Source of the DNA: Ignavibacteriota bacterium
GTDB lineage: Bacteria > Bacteroidota > Ignavibacteria > UBA10030
DNA length: 64,000 nt
Direction: 5' to 3'
Assembly (NCBI GenBank): GCA_003142575.1
Contig: PLMS01000093.1
Span: 2,995 to 66,994 of the forward strand
Below the pieces are notes generated by a model that saw nothing but the letters and a program-made list of their open reading frames with translations, made no database searches and had not been told where the DNA came from. Of this stretch, positions 43,310 through 63,279 are shown piece after piece. The position numbers were made by a program, and so were the translations under genes. Position 1 is the first letter of the stretch, and every line of letters starts with the position of its first letter.

Positions 43310-44707
43310 TTAGACTTCTCGGGCTGCTTTCAGCAATGTTTCAACTTTCTCCGGTGTCTCTGCTTCAGCATAAAATCGGATCAACGGCTCTGTGCCTGAC
43401 GCACGGACGAGCACCCACCCATTTTCCACAAAAAGTTTGAAACCGTCTTTGGTTTCAATACGTTGAATAGAAAATCCGGCAATCTGCTTCGGTCCTTTCT
43501 TATAAATAGCAAGAATACGCTGTTTCTCTTTTTCGGTCAGATGTGCATCGTATCGATTGAAATAATGCCATCCGAACTCGCTCATTAATTCATTCACAAG
43601 TTCACTGAGTTTCTTTTTCCGAGTTGCCATAATTTCGGATAGCAGTAATCCGATGTACGTCCCATCGCGCTCTGGCAAATGTCCTTTCACACCAACTCCG
43701 CCGCTTTCTTCTGCCGCAATCAAAATGTCGCGCTCGACCATCAATCGGCAGAGATATTTAAATCCAACCGGTGTCTCGTGCAATACCAAGCCGTACTTCT
43801 TGCACATCTTGTCGATAATTTGACTGACAGAAAACGATTTCGCCACTTCGCCGGTCATCTTCTTTTCTTCGATAAAATATTTCAGAAGAATTGCAAAGAT
43901 CCGGTGTGAATCGACGAAGTTGCCATTCTCATCAAACGCACCAATGCGGTCTGCATCTCCATCCGTGGCAATGCCGATGTCGCATCCATTTTTCACAATT
44001 GCCTCAATCAATCCAGGAGTATTTTGTGGCAATGGTTCGGGATGACTCCCGCCAAATGACGGGTTGAAATCACCGCGTATCGATACCTTCAGCGGAAGAA
44101 TCTGATCCATCACTCCTTGACCTGCACCGTGCATCGCATCGTAAGCAATTTTAATTCCGGACGACTTGATAAGATCAATATTTATTTTACTCTTAATATC
44201 TTTAATGTATATCGAGGTGAAATCAATTTTTTTTATGAGCCCTTTTTCAACCAACTCCTCAAACGACTTTTTGCTTACTACTTTTGACTTTATAACTTTC
44301 TTCAGTTCCTTCTCCACTTTCTCGATTGACTCTGGAAAAGCTGGACCACCAAAGTTTCCCTTGATTTTGAAGCCATTGTACTTCGCTGGGTTGTGGCTGG
44401 CAGTAATGATGATGCCTGCGGCGGCATCGAACTTTTTCGTCAATAAAGAGACCATCGGCGTAGAAGAAATCTTATCTGAGAGAATAACCTTCATTCCGCG
44501 ATTGCCAAGAACTTCCGATACCTTTTCTGCAAACTCCATTGATAGAAAACGCGAATCGTACCCAACAACAATGCCGTTTTTTATTTTTTTGTCTCGCTTG
44601 TAGAAGTTCGCTGTCGCAAGTGCAACCTTCGCGATGTTTTCAAAAGTGAAATCATCGGCAATCACTCCGCGCCATCCGTCTGTACCAAATTTTATGTGTG
44701 GAGTCAT
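43310..44707 (-). CDS. Phosphoglucomutase/phosphomannomutase family protein (phosphohexose mutase).
   Basis: Active-site Ser loop IIITASHNPAKYNGFKI. A four-domain alpha/beta/alpha pattern. Confidence 0.85.
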   Translation of the reverse strand: MTPHIKFGTDGWRGVIADDFTFENIAKVALATANFYKRDKKIKNGIVVGYDSRFLSMEFAEKVSEVLGNRGMKVILSDKISSTPMVSLLTKKFDAAAGIIITASHNPAKYNGFKIKGNFGGPAFPESIEKVEKELKKVIKSKVVSKKSFEELVEKGLIKKIDFTSIYIKDIKSKINIDLIKSSGIKIAYDAMHGAGQGVMDQILPLKVSIRGDFNPSFGGSHPEPLPQNTPGLIEAIVKNGCDIGIATDGDADRIGAFDENGNFVDSHRIFAILLKYFIEEKKMTGEVAKSFSVSQIIDKMCKKYGLVLHETPVGFKYLCRLMVERDILIAAEESGGVGVKGHLPERDGTYIGLLLSEIMATRKKKLSELVNELMSEFGWHYFNRYDAHLTEKEKQRILAIYKKGPKQIAGFSIQRIETKDGFKLFVENGWVLVRASGTEPLIRFYAEAETPEKVETLLKAAREV

Positions 44708-47184
44708 TATAATTTTTCCTTAACTGTAAATAGATTATATTCAGCCAATGATTCGTTGACTGACGTAACTTTCACTTTTTCATTGATCAATTTATCGATA
44801 AGTATCTTACCAGTTTTCAATTTGTTATAATTCGATCTAATTGTATCGAAAAACAAAATTTTCCAACTATCAAGTTCGAATCGTTCCGCAAACATCGGTG
44901 ATTTCATCTTACGCTGAAGCTGTTCTTCCCGCTCCTGAGGTATGATCATATACTTTGGTACATCCTGTGAAAGATTCGATCCGCGAACCAATCCGCTTGT
45001 CATTGTTGTTGTTGATTCTACTTCGAATGCTGCAACAACTTTGTTCCCTTTGATCCAGAGTAAATCGATCATCTCGACGGTTTTCAGGTCTTCAATACCG
45101 CTCACCTTGGAAAGGTCGGCATCAACATAGTTTTGAAGAAGCTTCTTTGCCCCTATAATTCCAGCAGCAAAATCAGTTTGTTCCTTTTTTCCAATCCAGA
45201 TTTTATAACCTAGAGCTTGTCCGACTTCTGCCAACACCGCAATGATTTCGCTGTGCTGACTTATTCGCTCGCGCACTTGTGGCTTTAGCAACCAGAATCC
45301 ACCGGTCACAGGTCGTGCATATTGTTCCAGTGCCTCTTTAATACTCGTGCTATCCGATGTCAGCGAGTTAGGAAATTGAATACTCACAGCTTCCCACGCA
45401 TCTGTGAATGTTACTCTTCCTTTTCCTTGAAGAAGACGCAAAACAGTCTGCTCTACTCGCTCGGTAAGCGGAATTTCTTTCAATCGCGCCACTTGATTCG
45501 GATCCTTGAACCACCACAACTGTCCTTTTGCACCTCCAAGACGTTCTTCTACTAACTTAAACTCTTGGCCGATGTGGTTTTTCAACACCATTTTGACATC
45601 TAGTCCTGTATGCAGATTGGAGAAGTATCCTTGCTTTGCCAAAATAGGATCGATAAAATTGATAACAATGGTATATGGAGTTGGTTCTGCTCTTTCCGCC
45701 AGCAATTGGATTGTGGTATCAACAACAATCTTTTCAAAACGCTTCTCATCAATTTCTTCCGGTACTTCAATGCGAGATGCTTCCGATTGTGGTTTGTGAA
45801 AACGAAGATAAAAATCACCCTGGGCAGAACCAAATGGTTGCAGAAGTGATTTTCCTGATTTTTGTGCAGTAGGTTGATGATGAATTTTTTCAAGCTCAAA
45901 TCCAGCATACGTTCCCGCGCGAATTGTTGCATTTCGCACTTGAAACGTGGGATTATGAAATGTGACAGTCATGTAGCGCCCAAGTTTCAGCGCTGCATGC
46001 ATTCCCTCAAAACTGCTTTTCAATAAACCGTGATAAACATCGAAATCTTTATGTTGCCGTTCATTGCGAACAACTTCTTTAGCAGAAATTGTATCAGTGT
46101 AACCCGTATCCTTTTTCAACCAGGCAGCCCACATATATGAAAGCTCGCCGTATTGGATCGAAGCATCGTATGGAGGATCAGTAAAGATATAATCCACTGA
46201 GCGTGAGGTAAGTTTTGCAAAGACATCCAGACAATCGCCAGTGATTATGCAGATGTCTGCTTTCCCTTCAAGGACTTGCTTGGGGTTCGTGGTTATCTTC
46301 ACATCCTTAAAAAATTTGTTGGATTCCACCTTCGCTTTAAGAAGTCCCTGATGACCAAGTATTGAACTTTCAAATTTATTCCAGACATTTTGTTCCATGA
46401 ATTCAGGCGCAAACCAAAAGCTATGTTGTGTCCACACAGAACTGAATGCGGTTTGATGATTAGTTGGCGCCGGGCTGAGAGCGGGTACCATCGTTGAACA
46501 CAAATGCACCATTGAGGAGAATGCAATTTTCAAGAAAGCTTTTAACTTCTCATCTTCCTCTTTCTCAATGGATTTCATCAGCAAAGCAAGTGCATAGAGA
46601 TTTCGTGGAGTAAATAGTTCATCGATGGATTCATACCGTTCCTTCTTCATAAACGGTGTTCCATCTGAATAATAAAGCGGATTCTTTGGATACCAAATTT
46701 TTTTCTTGTTGAATTCTTCTTCGATCTCTTTTATTCTTTTGAGATCTTTCCTGGTTGGTTTTCCGCCTTTTTCAACAACTTTACCACAGTTTGTGCATTT
46801 GTAACGAAGTTCTTTGAGAGTCAGATTTTTCTTTTCATCCCGATTCCAAATTGAACACTCAACCGGAATATCTTCACCACATTTCCGACATTCCGTTACG
46901 TACAAACCATCGATCTGCGACTTTACATCTTGTTCAACACGGACAAATGCTTCCCGCAAGCGAAGTGGTTCTATATATTCAACAGTAAGCCGTAATATTT
47001 CTGTCGCAATAGGATTGAGATCAACGGCAATCACTTTCCTTCCAAGCTTCAATGCTTCTAGTGCAGTGACGCCACTGCCGGAGAATGGATCCATCACTAT
47101 ACCACCCTTCGGGCAATACGTTTCGATAAATTGCGATATAACATTCCAGGTTTTTCTTCCCCAGAATTTGTGCCAATTGTACAT
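44707..47184 (-). CDS. Circularly permuted N6/N4 DNA methyltransferase with a zinc ribbon (COG1743-like) and an uncharacterised C-terminal domain of about 400 aa.
   Basis: Motif I MDPFSGSGVTALEALKLGRKVIAVDLNP is near the N-terminus. A C4 zinc ribbon follows (CRKCGED...CTNCGK). Motif IV VDYIFTDPPYDASIQYG lies about 300 aa later. The stop overlaps the mutase start codon by 1 nt. GC looks lower than neighbours by eye. I use the internal ATG start (MYNWHKFW), although the track ORF starts at a TTG. Confidence 0.75.
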   Translation of the reverse strand: MYNWHKFWGRKTWNVISQFIETYCPKGGIVMDPFSGSGVTALEALKLGRKVIAVDLNPIATEILRLTVEYIEPLRLREAFVRVEQDVKSQIDGLYVTECRKCGEDIPVECSIWNRDEKKNLTLKELRYKCTNCGKVVEKGGKPTRKDLKRIKEIEEEFNKKKIWYPKNPLYYSDGTPFMKKERYESIDELFTPRNLYALALLMKSIEKEEDEKLKAFLKIAFSSMVHLCSTMVPALSPAPTNHQTAFSSVWTQHSFWFAPEFMEQNVWNKFESSILGHQGLLKAKVESNKFFKDVKITTNPKQVLEGKADICIITGDCLDVFAKLTSRSVDYIFTDPPYDASIQYGELSYMWAAWLKKDTGYTDTISAKEVVRNERQHKDFDVYHGLLKSSFEGMHAALKLGRYMTVTFHNPTFQVRNATIRAGTYAGFELEKIHHQPTAQKSGKSLLQPFGSAQGDFYLRFHKPQSEASRIEVPEEIDEKRFEKIVVDTTIQLLAERAEPTPYTIVINFIDPILAKQGYFSNLHTGLDVKMVLKNHIGQEFKLVEERLGGAKGQLWWFKDPNQVARLKEIPLTERVEQTVLRLLQGKGRVTFTDAWEAVSIQFPNSLTSDSTSIKEALEQYARPVTGGFWLLKPQVRERISQHSEIIAVLAEVGQALGYKIWIGKKEQTDFAAGIIGAKKLLQNYVDADLSKVSGIEDLKTVEMIDLLWIKGNKVVAAFEVESTTTMTSGLVRGSNLSQDVPKYMIIPQEREEQLQRKMKSPMFAERFELDSWKILFFDTIRSNYNKLKTGKILIDKLINEKVKVTSVNESLAEYNLFTVKEKL

Positions 47185-47243
47185 TGGCGTATGGGCTTGG
47201 GGCGGTATTTGGTGGTTAAGATGGATCAATGTTTGAAAAAGAA

Positions 47244-47462
47244 AGGCTGGTGAGAAGTTGGAACTCCTTCCCAGCCATATTTACGTCCTTCACAGTTTAC
47301 AACTTCGCATTCACTGCTGATTTACCGGCGTAGATCGAGTTTGTTCCGAGTTCTTCCTCAATGTGGAGTAATTGATTCTACTTCGAATGCTGCAACAACT
47401 TTGTTCCCTTTGATTCAAAGTGAATCGATCATCTCGACGGTTTTCAGGTCTTCAATACTGCT
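47244..47462. repeat. Chimeric diverged duplicate: enolase 3' end plus 3'UTR hairpin (~48742..48874) fused by microhomology to an internal MTase fragment (~45012..45102).
   Basis: Hand alignment gives about 80 bp matching the last ~23 enolase codons plus the stop, then about 88 bp matching the MTase interior. The junction lies at attgattNtacttcg, which is shared by both sources. There are about 9 substitutions and all are transitions. Confidence 0.7.
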
Positions 47463-47484
47463 ATAGAAATTTCCTCATCGCGTT

Positions 47485-48627
47485 TTAATTAATATTAAGA
47501 ACAAGCGGTATTGTCACTCGGAATGTCGTTCCTTCTTCTTGCGATGTAGTAAACGAAACTTTTCCATGGAGATACCGCTCACTTAGTAGTTTCATACTGT
47601 ATGTGCCAAGTCCACGGTTCGAACCATTTGTAGAAAATGATCGTTGGAACATTTGCAACTGAACATTTCTTGGAATAAACGATGTATTGTGCACCCAAAA
47701 TTCAACAGATTCGTTGTGATGAGCACAGCCTACTGTAACTATTCCTTTTTCTGGAGATGCTTCGAGTGCATTCTTAATCATATTGCCAAGAACACGTCCC
47801 AATAAAGTTGAGTCGGATACAAACATAATTCGCATTGCATGAAGATCAACGCTGATTGTACGATTTTCCGCAACAATGTGGTGGCGATAGAATTCGCAAA
47901 CTTCTTGTATGCAATCAATTGAATTAATCTCTTTTGGGTTTGCTGCTAATTCATTGCTTTCTGCTGCCGCAAGTTCAACTTGTGCTTTAATTTCATCAAT
48001 AAGTTTTCTCAAAAGATGTTTGATTGTACTCAGACATTCTTTCTGAATTTGCGGATCTTCTTCTTCCATCATCTCAAAGTACCCAGTGAGTCCTCCTGTC
48101 GTGTTTAATACATCATGGAAAAATATTCGTTCTAACGCACGACGGCGTTTTTCGTGACTAATATCGCTAATCGTAAAAATCGTGAATGTTCCATGATAGG
48201 TATTCAGAGGTGTTGCGGTAACTCTCAATTCCAATGGGTCTAAATTTCCTTCTCGCGATATTAAATATTCCTGAACACTTGCATTTCCTTTCTGGCTGAC
48301 AAGGATGGCACGCACAGCACCGCATGTACGGCAATATTCTGTTGTACCGCATCCACCTTCGCTTTCTATTGCATGTATACATCGCAACACTTCGCCATGT
48401 CTTTTCCCATGTGAAGAATGTTCTCCAGATAATTTCATGAATTTGTCCATTGCATGATTGGCAAAAACAATTTGCCTGTGTTCATTCAAAATTACAACTA
48501 TGATAGGTACAGCATTCAGTACTTCACTCTGTAAAGAGTTTTTTATAAAAAAATTAATTTGTTGATTCAAATCTTCTGTGGTTGCACGTTCTGCTGGCGC
48601 ATATTGTGTCGGTAATGATGTAATCAA
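47485..48627 (-). CDS. Cytoplasmic sensor histidine kinase with an N-terminal 4-Cys (C-x10-C-x6-C-x2-C) PAS-like sensor domain.
   Basis: H-box FFHDVLNTTGGL. HATPase GNMIKNALEASPEKG ... GLGTYSMKLL. Cys cluster CIHAIESEGGCGTTEYCRTCG. No TM segment. Confidence 0.75.
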   Translation of the reverse strand: MITSLPTQYAPAERATTEDLNQQINFFIKNSLQSEVLNAVPIIVVILNEHRQIVFANHAMDKFMKLSGEHSSHGKRHGEVLRCIHAIESEGGCGTTEYCRTCGAVRAILVSQKGNASVQEYLISREGNLDPLELRVTATPLNTYHGTFTIFTISDISHEKRRRALERIFFHDVLNTTGGLTGYFEMMEEEDPQIQKECLSTIKHLLRKLIDEIKAQVELAAAESNELAANPKEINSIDCIQEVCEFYRHHIVAENRTISVDLHAMRIMFVSDSTLLGRVLGNMIKNALEASPEKGIVTVGCAHHNESVEFWVHNTSFIPRNVQLQMFQRSFSTNGSNRGLGTYSMKLLSERYLHGKVSFTTSQEEGTTFRVTIPLVLNIN

Positions 48628-48793
48628 GACAATCTTCCTTTATTTTGTAAACTTTTGTCAGCAAATTCTAAGCAATTAAAAAATAATATCAAAACGCGAG
48701 AGAATATTTCCACACAACGAAGCAGTGAAGAGTGCGCCATGTGGCTGGGAGTGTACCTCCCTCCCAGTTTCTTCGTGTTCTTCATCGATATCT

Positions 48794-50185
<1,392 letters not shown>

Positions 50186-50314
50186 TTATGCACTTAAATA
50201 AAGCCAAAAATTGCTGGAAATGCAATGGAAGCTGCGTGACCTTCCGAAGGGAATGAGACAGTATTCTGCTACGCGGAAGTCAATGTTAATGCTTCCTGCT
50301 CTTCGGAAGGTTTT

Positions 50315-50524
50315 TCAATTCGAAATCTTCCCACCCATTACACCTTGGGCAAACGTGCGGAAACTCCGGTCGTATGTCTGTTCAACACTGTCCGGGAAAC
50401 AGCAAGCGGACAATTCTTGCATGCGCAAATGATACTGTATACATTCACAACACGTTCCCTTGCGTGAACAAGGTTCATAACTGCAATTACATTTCTTCAA
50501 GTTTTTTGGCTTATTGCATTCCAT
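50315..50524 (-). CDS. Small cysteine-rich protein (69 aa) of unknown function.
   Basis: MECNKPKNLKKCNCSYEPCSRKGTCCECIQYH ... ACCFP carries 9 Cys in 69 aa. Starts at the internal ATG of the 117-aa ORF. Confidence 0.5.
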   Translation of the reverse strand: MECNKPKNLKKCNCSYEPCSRKGTCCECIQYHLRMQELSACCFPDSVEQTYDRSFRTFAQGVMGGKISN

Positions 50525-57519: not shown

Positions 57520-58404
57520 ATGAAACGTTCTTATCTTTTTATCTTTGTTGTCTTACTCGCATCTTCGCTCTCATTGGCTCAGGTGCAGATCGAAGACGAG
57601 CTGTATTCATCTGTCGTAGGCATTGAAGGCAAAACACATCAAGGACGCTGTGAGTTCATCAAAAATCAATTACATGCTCTCGGTGTTGGGTACGTCGCTG
57701 CGCCGTTTAATCATATTGTCGTCAATAAAAAAGATACAACGATGACCAAAGGTGAAAATATTATCGTTCGGGTCGGAGCAGGGACAAAGCGAATCGTTGT
57801 CGGAGCGCACTACGATGCATTTGGCGAGTCCCCAGGCGCCAATGATAACGGCAGCGGCGTTGCTGTTTTGCTTTCGCTCATTAAACAACTTCAAGATACG
57901 GTGTGGAATTACAGTGTGGATTTTTGTTTCTTCGATCTGGAAGAGGCAGGGCTCCTCGGATCAGATTATTATATCACACAGTTTGTCATCCCTCAGCGTC
58001 ATATTGCGATGATCAATCTCGATATTGAAGGCACAGGTGAGGAAGTGTATGTGGGACCGGTCGGCAGCAATAGTCAAAATATTATGCGTTATGTTCATGA
58101 AGCAGCGAAACAAACAGGGTTCCCGTTCTTTGAGAGCGCGGAGTTCCCCGCTTCGGATCAAGTGTCGTTTGAAAAATCCAATTTGCAAGATATCGCCGTT
58201 TCGATCGTTCCGAAAGGTGACGCCGAGCGTTTAAGTAAGTATGTGCGCAACGGCTACAAAGCCGATTCCATCGATACACCGAAAGTTCTTGGTGTCATGC
58301 ATACATTTGAAGATCGTTCGAGACTTGTCTCTCCTGCATCGCTGAAGATGTCGTATGAATTCACCAAAACTTTGCTGATGCTCCTGAACGAGTCTGGAAG
58401 GTAG
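57520..58404 (+). CDS. M28 family peptidase (aminopeptidase-like), secreted.
   Basis: VGAHYDAFGESPGANDNGSGVAVLLSL is the M28 zinc-ligand motif. Signal peptide. Confidence 0.8.
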   Translation: MKRSYLFIFVVLLASSLSLAQVQIEDELYSSVVGIEGKTHQGRCEFIKNQLHALGVGYVAAPFNHIVVNKKDTTMTKGENIIVRVGAGTKRIVVGAHYDAFGESPGANDNGSGVAVLLSLIKQLQDTVWNYSVDFCFFDLEEAGLLGSDYYITQFVIPQRHIAMINLDIEGTGEEVYVGPVGSNSQNIMRYVHEAAKQTGFPFFESAEFPASDQVSFEKSNLQDIAVSIVPKGDAERLSKYVRNGYKADSIDTPKVLGVMHTFEDRSRLVSPASLKMSYEFTKTLLMLLNESGR

Positions 58405-58952
58405 TTCTGCACGTTGATGAGACTCTCAGCGTAGACTGTGTGACACCTACCGGACAACAACAAGCATCGTCAGGTTTGAATGCACTCATGAAAACATTCG
58501 GGAATGATAAATTTATTTTGTTAAGCGCTGTTCCTACCGTGCGTAACGTCAGTTTGTAAGTCGGACAATTGAAGATATTTATCCTATCATGTATTGATGT
58601 ATGCCAACAAAAATAGAAATTGCCCGTTGCTGCCTCCTTTGATCCATCGAAAACTTTTTACTTAAGATAATTTTGGATCACTTTTTGGGAGACAGGTCAA
58701 TGTTGTTCCAGTCCCAATGTGATCCACCTCTCTTTTTTTGACCAAATATTTCCAAGCCGCGAGGAACAACTCTTGCAGTTGCTATCCGTTTATGAGGCGC
58801 AAAATATGCAGTATGGTGCATTACTTGCACGAGTGAAGAAAGAAGATTCTTCATTTCAAACAGATTTCCTGATTTTCTATGCGGCATATAGATTGCAGTG
58901 TTATTTGTGAAGTAATCCATTTTCATCATAGAACATTATAAATGAGAGAGAA

Positions 58953-59275: not shown

Positions 59276-59393
59276 TTGTCATGCATACATTGGAAGACCG
59301 TTCGAGACTTATCTCTCCGGCATCGCTGAAGATATCATTTGAATTCACCAAAACTTTGCTGATGCTCCTGAATGAGTCTGGAAGATAGTTCCA
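59276..59393 (+). repeat. Diverged duplicate of the M28 peptidase 3' end (last ~35 codons plus stop), about 880 bp downstream of the intact gene.
   Basis: Hand alignment to ~58291..58408 gives about 9 substitutions, 5 synonymous and 4 conservative (F/L, V/I, M/I, Y/F). Frame and stop are preserved. Confidence 0.7.
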
Positions 59394-61185: not shown

Positions 61186-63279
61186 CTATCTCAACAATAC
61201 AAGTTTTCTTGTTTCTGAAAATGCACCTGCCCTCAAGCGATAAAAATATATTCCGCTTGACATATTTGCCGCATTCCATTGCTGAAGATGATTTCCAGCA
61301 GATAACTCTTCATTGACAAGAGTTGCAATCTCTCTGCCCATAATATCAAATACTTTCAGCGTGACAAAAGATTCTGATGGGAGACTAAATGAGATAGCTG
61401 TACTTGGGTTGAATGGATTGGGATAGTTCTGTTGAAGGTTATAAATCTTTGGCAGCTGAGAAGATGCTTGTCCGACAGATGCAGAGGTAATCATTTCAGA
61501 GAGAGATCGTTTCCAAACAACTCCACTACCAGCTCCAGCAAATAGATTTTCACCAATCACTCTGAGAGCGTATACCGGAGCATTTGGCAATCCGGTATTT
61601 ACAGAAGCCCAACTCGTTCCATTATTAGTAGAAAGAAAAATACCTCCGAGCCAGGTTCCGGCAAATATATTTTTGCCGCTGGCAGCGAGATCAAAAATAT
61701 TGATATCGGTCAAGCCGTTATTAACTGCAGTCCAACTAACACCGTTGTTTGTTGATAGAAAAATACCCCCGCCCAAAGTTCCAACAAAGATATTTGTATC
61801 ACAAATTAAAATTGTACGCACTTGATACTTCGACGACACAACACCAAGGGATGTCCAGCTTGAACCATTATTACTCGAAACAAAAACACCACCGCTGTCA
61901 GTCCCCGCATAAATAGTATTATTGTCTACCGTCAGGTCAAATACATCCATATTTGTCAATCCGATATTGGCAGCATTCCAATTTGCGCCATTGTCTGAGG
62001 AAAGGAATATACCATTACCATACGTTCCTGCAAAAAGATATGAACCAGAGATAGCAAGAGTTTGAATATTATTATTAGTCAGTCCTGTATTGCTAGTTGA
62101 CCATGTAGTACCATTGTCGGTGGAAATAAAGAAACCGTCGACTTCAGTTCCGACAAAGATATTTGAATTACTTACTACAAGCGATGAAATATTGTATATA
62201 TTCCTTTCAGTATTGAGACGCGTCCAATTCAATCCATCATTTGTGGAAACAAATACTCCGCTCGACCAAGTAGCGGCATAAATATTTGAACCTTTTGTAT
62301 TAAACGCATGGACTTCAGTTGCCGATAGACCGGAGTCGCATTCATTCCAATTTGCACCGTCATTGTTGGTGATAAAAACACCGACTTCCGTACCGGCAAA
62401 GAGGCTTGTTCCATACTCCATTAAAGCAAATACAGACATAGCTGCTAATCCAGTATTTACTCTGGACCAACTTGTTCCATTATTTGTAGATAGAAAAACA
62501 CCATACCCATTTGTACCTGCAAAGAGCATGGTATCACCTATGCCATTTGAACGAACTGCAAAAGCAGTAATATTATTAGAATATGGATTAATCAAGTTTG
62601 TGGTATTCCAATTTGCACCATTATTTGTGGAAATATAAATATCTCCATAACTGGTTCCGGCAAAGAGATCCGAACCGCTTGCAATCAGAGCAGTAATGCC
62701 AGTATGCGTTAATCCTGTATTGACTTCAGTCCAACTCGTACCATTATTTGTAGTACGAAAGACACCCCCATCTGTGCCCACAAAAAGATTTGTATCCTTT
62801 ATAGCAAAAGAACTAACACGTAAATTTGTTAATCCCGTATTGACCGCAGTCCAACTTGTCCCATTATTAGTAGACAAGAAAACTCCTTCGTCAAAAGTCC
62901 CGGCAAAAAGGTTTTTATCGCTCGCTATAAGTGCCTGAATTCCAGTTGTTGTTAATCCTGTATTAATGGAATTCCAGCTTTTTCCGTTATCCTCAGAAAG
63001 AAACATACCACCCCATGTACCGGCAAAAAGATTTGTTCCAATAACTGCAAGTGCATGAATAGTAGTATTAATCAATCCTGAATTTGCAGGCACCCAATTT
63101 GTCCCGCCATCCGTAGAAAGGAAAACACCGGCTCCGTATGTTCCAGTAAAAATATTCGTGCCACTGCATGCGAAAGATGTAATATATCCTCCTCCCGGCA
63201 CGCTGGTTTGAACCCATTGAGAGAAAGATTCCGTTGACAAAAGCATTAAACTCGTAACAACAAATAAAATCTTTTTCAT
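61186..63279 (-). CDS. BNR/Ycf48-like beta-propeller repeat protein with a Por/T9SS C-terminal sorting domain.
   Basis: About 14 tandem repeats of roughly 26 aa (GTxGGGVFLSTNNGTSWT). The C-terminal tail is NYPNPFNPSTAISFSLP ... SGIYFYRL ... KLVLLR. Signal peptide. Confidence 0.8.
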   Translation of the reverse strand: MKKILFVVTSLMLLSTESFSQWVQTSVPGGGYITSFACSGTNIFTGTYGAGVFLSTDGGTNWVPANSGLINTTIHALAVIGTNLFAGTWGGMFLSEDNGKSWNSINTGLTTTGIQALIASDKNLFAGTFDEGVFLSTNNGTSWTAVNTGLTNLRVSSFAIKDTNLFVGTDGGVFRTTNNGTSWTEVNTGLTHTGITALIASGSDLFAGTSYGDIYISTNNGANWNTTNLINPYSNNITAFAVRSNGIGDTMLFAGTNGYGVFLSTNNGTSWSRVNTGLAAMSVFALMEYGTSLFAGTEVGVFITNNDGANWNECDSGLSATEVHAFNTKGSNIYAATWSSGVFVSTNDGLNWTRLNTERNIYNISSLVVSNSNIFVGTEVDGFFISTDNGTTWSTSNTGLTNNNIQTLAISGSYLFAGTYGNGIFLSSDNGANWNAANIGLTNMDVFDLTVDNNTIYAGTDSGGVFVSSNNGSSWTSLGVVSSKYQVRTILICDTNIFVGTLGGGIFLSTNNGVSWTAVNNGLTDINIFDLAASGKNIFAGTWLGGIFLSTNNGTSWASVNTGLPNAPVYALRVIGENLFAGAGSGVVWKRSLSEMITSASVGQASSQLPKIYNLQQNYPNPFNPSTAISFSLPSESFVTLKVFDIMGREIATLVNEELSAGNHLQQWNAANMSSGIYFYRLRAGAFSETRKLVLLR

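Follow-up and report, generated by a model that had tools for sequence, protein, structure and literature searches.

A probable scar of illegitimate recombination between alternative alleles of the variable eno–PGM locus in peat-soil Ignavibacteriota

Between a sensor histidine-kinase-like gene and a DNA methyltransferase (MTase) gene of an Ignavibacteriota bacterium lies a non-coding block of about 220 nt (positions 47244–47462) which appears to repeat, out of place, parts of two of its neighbours. It was noticed in a stretch of 64 000 nt of genomic DNA (hereafter the window, to which all coordinates refer unless a locus is named) by a reader working from the letters and their open reading frames alone. 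That sequence-only reading described the block as the 3′ end of the enolase gene (eno) fused to an internal piece of the MTase, and offered several accounts of it, from a recombination scar through a regulatory element to an error of assembly. Which of these accounts is right, and by what route could the ends of two genes have come to be joined at this place? We approached the question by aligning the block to its putative parents and by comparing the locus across related genomes and metagenome contigs.

All features of the locus lie on the minus strand, in the order eno, hairpin A, kinase, block, MTase and phosphoglucomutase-family gene (PGM), and are as follows.

48794–50089, minus strand: working enolase gene (eno), 431 aa (Pfam Enolase_N and Enolase_C)
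48793–48882, minus strand: repeat copy A, the final 29 codons of eno with the stop (local alignment, repeat finder)
48869–48882, minus strand: the microhomology within copy A, TTGATTATACTTCG (motif search)
48742–48770, minus strand: hairpin A, the kinase-allele form of the eno terminator stem, without a U-run
47485–48627, minus strand: soluble sensor histidine-kinase-like gene, 380 aa (HATPase_c and a 4-Cys N-terminal domain)
47463–47484, minus strand: 22-nt spacer after the kinase stop, containing GAGGAA and stopping at the left junction
47386–47462, minus strand: MTase-derived fragment, a copy of 45026–45102 (alignment)
47372–47385, minus strand: the 14-nt microhomology at the junction, TTGATTCTACTTCG (alignment, motif search)
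47296–47371, minus strand: repeat copy B, a putatively displaced eno 3′ end of 24 codons and a stop (frame open)
47233–47275, minus strand: hairpin B with its U-run, the ancestral intrinsic terminator of eno (alignment; −21.8 kcal/mol, z −3.2)
44707–47184, minus strand: DNA MTase gene, 825 aa (N6_N4_Mtase and NmeDI_C)
45012–45102, minus strand: source segment within the MTase, aa 695–725, with the MID...FEVES motif
43310–44707, minus strand: phosphoglucomutase-family gene (PGM), the conserved right flank of the hotspot

The start of eno was set at 50089 from relatives and gene calls, while the frame in the list of open reading frames runs to 50179. In the MTase, the AdoMet motif is N-terminal (aa ~45), DPPY stands at aa ~335 with a Cys-rich CRKCG...CTNCG stretch between the two, and NmeDI_C is C-terminal; the MTase stop overlaps the PGM start by one base, and no separate restriction gene is adjacent to the MTase. 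Upstream of eno there is a 25-nt imperfect inverted repeat (50239–50311; 76% complementary, with a 23-nt loop), whose second arm was also scored as a plus-strand terminator-like site (50292–50309).

Local alignment and a repeat finder bore out the mosaic. The eno-type piece (47296–47385) matches 48793–48882, that is the stop and final 29 codons of eno, over 90 nt with 6 mismatches (BLAST E-value 6e-32), and the MTase-type piece (47372–47462) matches 45012–45102, in the gene interior that encodes aa 695–725, over 91 nt with 4 mismatches (7e-36). Both pieces are in sense orientation relative to their parent genes. They share a 14-nt microhomology, TTGATT[C/A]TACTTCG, and it is inside this stretch that the junction falls, as had been claimed. 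The version in the block, TTGATTCTACTTCG, agrees with the MTase interior at 14 of 14 positions and with eno at 13 of 14. With up to one mismatch allowed, the motif occurs at three sites only in the 64-kb window, against an expectation of 0.06. Copies A and B of the 90-nt eno repeat are 1497 nt apart and 93% identical. The further claim that the 3′ UTR hairpin of eno had been copied along with the stop codon held for the stop but not for the hairpin, which does not continue the copy: past the eno stop, the spacers of the two eno ends do not align, and the likeness between them is confined to the hairpin stems.

The differences between the mosaic and its parents are also as first described. Read in the eno frame, which is open to a TAA at 47297–47299, copy B differs from eno by four synonymous changes and one conservative replacement (R to H), while in the MTase frame the fragment carries G to S, L to S, W to stop and one synonymous change. 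All nine differences outside the microhomology are transitions, of mixed kind (T/C and G/A, in both directions). In a comparison of the window with the homologous contig L017 (see below), transitions make up a fraction of 0.62–0.69 over eno, spacer and kinase, against which nine of nine has a nominal P of 0.01–0.04; this excess falls outside what the model proposed below explains. The predominance of synonymous changes had been taken as the mark of a sequence that evolved as a working enolase in another lineage. Such an origin is plausible, and would agree with our model, but the substitutions themselves argue for it only weakly: 36% of random transitions in the codons of copy B are synonymous, giving P = 0.06 for four or more of five. 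Among 81 loci there was no working eno end that equals copy B; that of L017 came nearest, with three differences.

L017 is a contig of an NCBI MAG from SPRUCE peat which, together with the JGI contig L097, represents another species and carries an orthologous mosaic with substitutions of its own. There the MTase fragment remains open in frame, with 98.9% identity to the MTase of the window, which supports the pseudogene decay that the sequence-only reading had seen in the window's piece. The decay took place in the window lineage, as the piece in L017 lacks the stop codon of the window piece.

We compared about 90 related loci, 80 of which came from an enolase scan of species-representative genomes. 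These 80 are all Ignavibacteriota or Bacteroidota MAGs, mainly from fen and peat, and the nearest relative among them is fen_1287, with an enolase 99% identical in amino acid sequence. In most of the 80 genomes eno is followed after ~70 nt by PGM, and the spacer of these relatives contains a hairpin, GGCTGGGAAG...CTCCCAGCC, followed by a T-run. The window hairpin at 47244–47275 (the stem of hairpin B) and its T-run align with this eno terminator, as is seen with the terminators after eno in L012, L013, L015, L016 and L018. The ancestral arrangement is eno–terminator–PGM.

Across Ignavibacteriota, the spacer between eno and PGM is a cargo hotspot, being found empty, with the MTase only, with the kinase only, with a 267-aa ORF (ORF267) or with combinations of these. 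The MTase-only allele is present in L015, with an MTase 91% identical in amino acid sequence to that of the window, and in the distant lineages L078, L079 and L085, where the MTase is 70–72% identical. ORF267 follows eno (with the kinase module between) in L017, and relatives of it at 29–39% amino acid identity follow eno in eight distant genomes. In the kinase-only allele, known from a 19,977-bp P0005 contig (JGI 3300075153) through its gene spacing, 22 nt separate the kinase stop from the PGM start. As to the wider range of the cargo, the MTase also occurs in lineages whose enolase is only 77% identical, and many loci have larger inserts, of 0.4–2 kb, in the eno–PGM spacer.

Two of these comparisons bear directly on the origin of the block. 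First, related genomes do contain eno, terminator, MTase and PGM in a row without the kinase. In the window, the whole run from copy B through hairpin B and the MTase to PGM forms a single 4074-nt alignment with such a locus, L015, and this alignment begins inside the working eno 3′ end of L015. Because of this collinearity, copy B would be the former working end of an MTase-type allele. Second, all alleles with the kinase (L017, L092, L101) show conservation of hairpin A and of the eno–kinase spacer, which are the form that the eno 3′ region takes in kinase alleles. The kinase gene is the cargo of the inserted module.

The kinase also has relatives at 65% identity (L098–L100), which occupy another conserved locus, in the order DUF5700, kinase, spermine synthase-like gene and radical SAM. 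Because these relatives sit at a different conserved locus, the eno-linked kinase clade (79–100% amino acid identity) is a relocated or paralogous copy. For the same reason they were uninformative as evidence on the junctions, and we set them aside.

Alleles that carry the kinase together with MTase sequence were found with three kinds of junction. The left junction, at which the kinase and its 22-nt spacer meet MTase position 45102, is identical in all three, and the right junction differs. In type (a), seen in L101 (a contig of 40 kb), L102 and L094, obtained from members of the kinase cluster, the kinase stop and the same 22-nt spacer lead into MTase codons 695–825; this remnant, which begins with the segment that corresponds to 45012–45102, runs through the microhomology to the natural MTase stop overlapping PGM, and there is no right junction. 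In type (b) (L092, L103 and L104), 75 nt of the fragment are joined at 45028 to the region upstream of the MTase, with neither the eno copy nor the terminator. In type (c), comprising the window, its strain variant L093 and L017, the fragment is joined at the microhomology to eno. The type (a) parent had been predicted from the topology of the junction before it was discovered: because an order in which the MTase interior is followed by the eno 3′ end is the junction of an unequal exchange or of a circle, and not of a deletion, a parent leading from the kinase into the MTase 3′ end was to be expected. As for the relation between the types, the fragment has derived states AGT and CTT in common between the window and L092, and TTT in common between L017 and L092; the sharing of such states by types (b) and (c) fits a single origin of the left junction. 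A scan of metagenome DNA with the spacer pattern AATTAAANCGNAATGAAGNAATTT yielded, apart from one chance match, only the contig of L017 type and that of L092, and no further type (a).

The MTase 3′ remnant of type (a) has some features of its own. Its 131-codon frame is intact to the natural stop (L101 3139–3534; L102 1528–1923), and a 122-aa gene is called within it. Compared with the window MTase it has a pN/pS of 0.17, and four of its private amino acid changes, including a D to N in MID...FEVES, cluster in the first 31 codons; either the remnant is young or its C-terminal domain is still under selection. In addition, the base after the microhomology in type (a) contigs (L094 ~1414, L101 ~3230) is a T, so that GAATCAAT is followed by AACA, much as AATCAAT is followed by TACT in eno, while intact MTases have a C at the first base past the microhomology (window 45011 / 47371). 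This T could be due to chance, to a parental microhomology of 15 nt or to an exchange with a type (c) allele that left its footprint.

We consider it probable that the block is a non-functional scar, left by illegitimate recombination between alternative alleles of the variable eno–PGM locus in peat-soil Ignavibacteriota. Its history would have had two steps. In the first, a kinase allele (eno, hairpin A, kinase, 22 nt, PGM) would have been joined illegitimately with an MTase allele (eno, terminator, MTase, PGM), and the product, in which eno, hairpin A, the kinase and its 22 nt run into the MTase 3′ remnant and PGM, would be the type (a) seen in L101, L102 and L094. In the second, type (a) DNA would have recombined with an intact MTase allele. 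On the left side this exchange would have been homologous, within eno; on the right it would have been an illegitimate joint, with CGAAGTAGAATCAA of the remnant pairing with the 13/14-identical CGAAGTATAATCAA, which is situated 76 nt ahead of the recipient's eno stop. The first part of the resulting allele would then be a complete eno with a donor 3′ end, followed by hairpin A, the kinase and 91 nt of the MTase remnant, and the second part the eno 3′ end of the recipient, displaced together with its original terminator, followed by the intact MTase and PGM.

The net effect of these steps would be an insertion of 1497 bp with a target duplication of 90 nt, through which the donor eno end would have become the working one and the resident end would have been displaced along with its terminator. 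Later the scar would have drifted, with the MTase piece gaining its stop codon. The two pairs of direct repeats would remain as substrates for deletions, leading back to an MTase-only allele or to type (a), and may also allow the kinase module to enter other alleles via short eno homology, which is how we read L017. The comparative loci thus support the original suggestion of a recombination or integration scar that places a kinase-bearing segment of ~1.5 kb between two eno 3′ ends.

The direction of these events is itself a matter of inference. An order from (a) to (c) is more parsimonious, yet type (a) could instead be a product of the window type, if the two 91-nt MTase repeats recombined with each other, and type (b) could derive by a 166-nt deletion. 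The physical process may have been transformation with homology on one side only, an unequal exchange in which two co-resident copies took part, or the integration of a circle. What the locus offers is a series of alleles (the empty site, the two alleles with a single cargo, the intermediate that had been predicted, and two end products) that lets such a two-step history be read base by base, and it suggests that cargo genes can be stacked at a hotspot by microhomology joining, with no need of the machinery of a mobile element.

Several known systems produce comparable structures, of which homology-facilitated illegitimate recombination is the closest (de Vries and Wackernagel, 2002; Prudhomme et al., 2002; Meier and Wackernagel, 2003; as cited in PMC5361080; see also PMC3240628). 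It has been proposed, too, for orphan immunity-gene arrays (Vibrio T6SS) and for Rhs orphaned 3′ ends. Here likewise there is a microhomology joint on one side, eno would serve as the homologous anchor on the other, foreign DNA is gained and the resident gene is kept, and both a plausible donor (L101, L102, L094) and a plausible recipient (L015) are at hand. In contrast to that process as described, the microhomology here is long (14 nt, 13/14 matching), and the event would have to be reconstructed from natural alleles of uncultivated bacteria (MAGs). An unequal exchange between two resident copies would yield the same product.

The structure also recalls insertions with long target duplications (Nobusato et al., 2000; Furuta, Abe and Kobayashi, 2010; PMC2853133). 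As in those, the flanking direct repeat is longer than 30 bp (here 90 nt) and single-copy at the empty site (L012, L013, L015 and L016), it overlaps a gene's 3′ end, the site is an MTase locus, and the insert is under 20 kb and free of mobility genes, the kinase being the only gene inside it. It departs from them in its cargo: the insert carries the kinase rather than R and M genes, the MTase being a resident neighbour outside the repeats, and it includes a fragment of that neighbouring MTase, the feature that reveals the two-step history. A likeness exists as well to integrative elements that target the 3′ ends of tRNA or protein genes, in that a working gene ends in element-borne sequence and its original end is displaced as a pseudo-copy. 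Unlike the repeats of such elements, however, ours is 93% identical and not exact, and what it is joined to, at a chance microhomology, is an unrelated gene. No integrase or recombinase was found in or near the 1.5-kb insert, the genes of the neighbourhood encoding a TPR protein, DUF6485, enolase, the kinase, the MTase, PGM and a TRAM methyltransferase. We also considered the template and variable repeats of a diversity-generating retroelement (DGR), which likewise lie at gene 3′ ends, and rejected them: the mismatches here are not adenine-specific and there is no flanking reverse transcriptase. In sum, this would be a known kind of event and a new example of it, with seemingly no earlier description from this phylum; our literature search found no paper that combines Ignavibacteria with illegitimate recombination.

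L017 raises the question of whether the module, once formed, continued to move. In nucleotide identity between the window and L017, the eno body stands at 85%, the last ~230 nt of eno at about 96%, the eno–kinase spacer at 94.6%, the kinase at 96.1% and the mosaic pieces at 91–94%, and past the copy B stop the DNA is unrelated. Because the module and the eno end are 91–96% identical, against 85% for the eno body and nothing recognizable downstream, the module has moved between lineages by recombination that used eno homology. The step from 85% to ~96%, near nt 1065 of eno, records a later exchange and not the founding event. In addition, copy B of L017 equals copy A of the window at all of the 75 compared positions bar the stop codon, and two sites (CTT/CTC and GCG/GCA) are swapped between copies A and B of the two loci. 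Such swaps weakly suggest a crossover or conversion between the copies, or re-insertion by a single crossover; the two-step model needs extra conversion or crossover events to accommodate them.

These patterns invite a more adventurous reading, to which we give limited credence, that the kinase module between its 90-nt eno 3′ copies is a recombinase-free 'hitch-hiking cassette' that acquired portable homology arms from the founding event. If it were so, the cassette could loop out and re-insert, or be copied by a short-arm double crossover, behind any related eno, and this would explain both the swapped polymorphisms and the presence of one module before two unrelated alleles, namely that with the MTase in the window and that with ORF267 in L017. 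A variant of the idea is that combinations with an intact MTase may have been selected because the MTase, a protein with a nuclease domain, would resist allelic replacement. Restriction–modification complexes have reportedly been shown by experiment to resist allelic replacement (Handa et al., 2001).

In the specific form of this reading, the eno 3′ end, hairpin A, kinase and MTase fragment would together, as a unit of 1497 bp, be a small mobilisable cassette that leaves as a circle, looped out via the 90-nt eno repeats, and re-inserts by a single crossover where other alleles or lineages have their conserved eno 3′ end. It is true that the L017 module ends exactly at the copy B stop and is followed by ORF267, a different, ancient allele with relatives behind eno in eight distant genomes, that the stop codons and the two polymorphic sites are divided between the two copies in the way predicted by a crossover close to the 3′ limit of the homology, and that the module is closer to the window (91–96%) than the eno body is (85%). 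On the other hand, the tract of high identity starts ~230 nt before the eno stop, some 140 nt upstream of the repeat, and not at the repeat edge, a start that an ordinary double-crossover replacement fits equally well; no recombinase gene or evidence of a circle was seen, only two sites are informative and only two host alleles are known. We thus regard this form as unlikely, and a pure single-crossover circle model for L017, which does fit the stops and the two sites, was dropped as unneeded given where the tract begins.

Could the mosaic instead have formed in place, within one genome? A microhomology-mediated tandem duplication running from the eno 3′ end to the MTase interior, with the first, truncated MTase copy later swapped for the kinase, would yield exactly the observed order of MTase interior followed by eno 3′ end, which is that of a tandem-duplication or circle junction, and the copies in L017 (98.9%) are almost identical to the window parent genes. 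Such a history, however, requires an additional and precise replacement of 2.1 kb by hairpin A and the kinase. It also leaves unaccounted for why hairpin A and its spacer are of the kinase-allele type and hairpin B of the MTase-allele type, why the kinase spacing in front of PGM in the kinase-only allele matches the 22-nt spacing, and why the junction of the kinase and its 22 nt with MTase position 45102 is also present in types (a) and (b), which have no eno copy B. We judge it to be quite improbable.

The two-step scar is preferred also over any reading in which the block has a function. The sequence-only reading had raised the possibility that the MTase-sense fragment acts in cis or in trans on MTase expression, and one may imagine more generally an RNA derived from the kinase 3′ UTR, or a cis element that tunes the MTase or eno via the sense copies. 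Its place between the kinase stop and a strong terminator means that the mosaic is probably transcribed, and it has been kept in two species. Yet sense copies cannot pair with either parent mRNA. Of 189 positions in the mosaic, 14 (7.4%) differ between the window and L017, the corresponding figures being 6.0% for third codon positions of the kinase and 5.4% for the eno–kinase spacer; the mosaic folds no better than shuffled sequences (z −0.67), the terminator hairpin (−21.8 kcal/mol, z −3.2) being the only part of the block with a stable fold; and no Rfam family matches at E ≤ 1 in 44500–50500. A structured or known RNA was rejected on the last two results. Moreover, L017 keeps its mosaic though no MTase follows it, type (b) does without the eno part, and in the kinase-only allele a mosaic would not fit. 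Because divergence is near neutral, the fold unremarkable, Rfam silent and the mosaic present in L017 ahead of no MTase, a regulatory role is unsupported. The scar shows no sign of function and a divergence close to neutral, and we hold a functional element to be very unlikely.

Finally, the suspicion that the block is an assembly chimera, with strains mixed in a de Bruijn graph, draws on the fact that such repeats do branch assembly graphs (the MTase fragment is where contig L005 breaks off, and L011 begins within the eno repeat), but is scarcely credible and can be dismissed, as a 100% identical mosaic recurs in at least 10 independent assemblies, which stem from different samples and from the JGI and ENA pipelines, each of them spanning at least one junction, the 99.5% strain variant L093 has the same mosaic, the orthologue in L017 and L097 was assembled twice independently with its own substitutions, and junction types (a) and (b) were each found three times. 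The exact window enolase protein was encoded on 20 contigs, and the exact MTase on nine, from different JGI and ENA samples. Metagenome assemblies can therefore faithfully recover 90-nt repeat structures such as this mosaic. With the 3′ ends of eno and the MTase present twice, though, read mapping and variant calling become ambiguous here, which calls for caution on the part of annotators.

Among the closest contigs, strain variation is concentrated in the kinase. Twelve of the 18 mismatches of L093 fall within 47629–48300, as do all four of L005 (47815–47852), and neither has any in the mosaic or in the 5′ half of the MTase. Elsewhere in the window there are repeats of other kinds. Eight 102-nt units (62–74% identity), spaced at multiples of ~123 nt, occupy 61582–63168 inside a 697-aa ORF (61186–63279, minus strand), presumably a repeat-domain protein. 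A direct repeat of 115 nt, 92% identical, has its copies at 58293–58407 and 59277–59391, at a distance of 984 nt; a 294-aa ORF (57520–58404) ends within the first copy, which is possibly another duplicated gene end.
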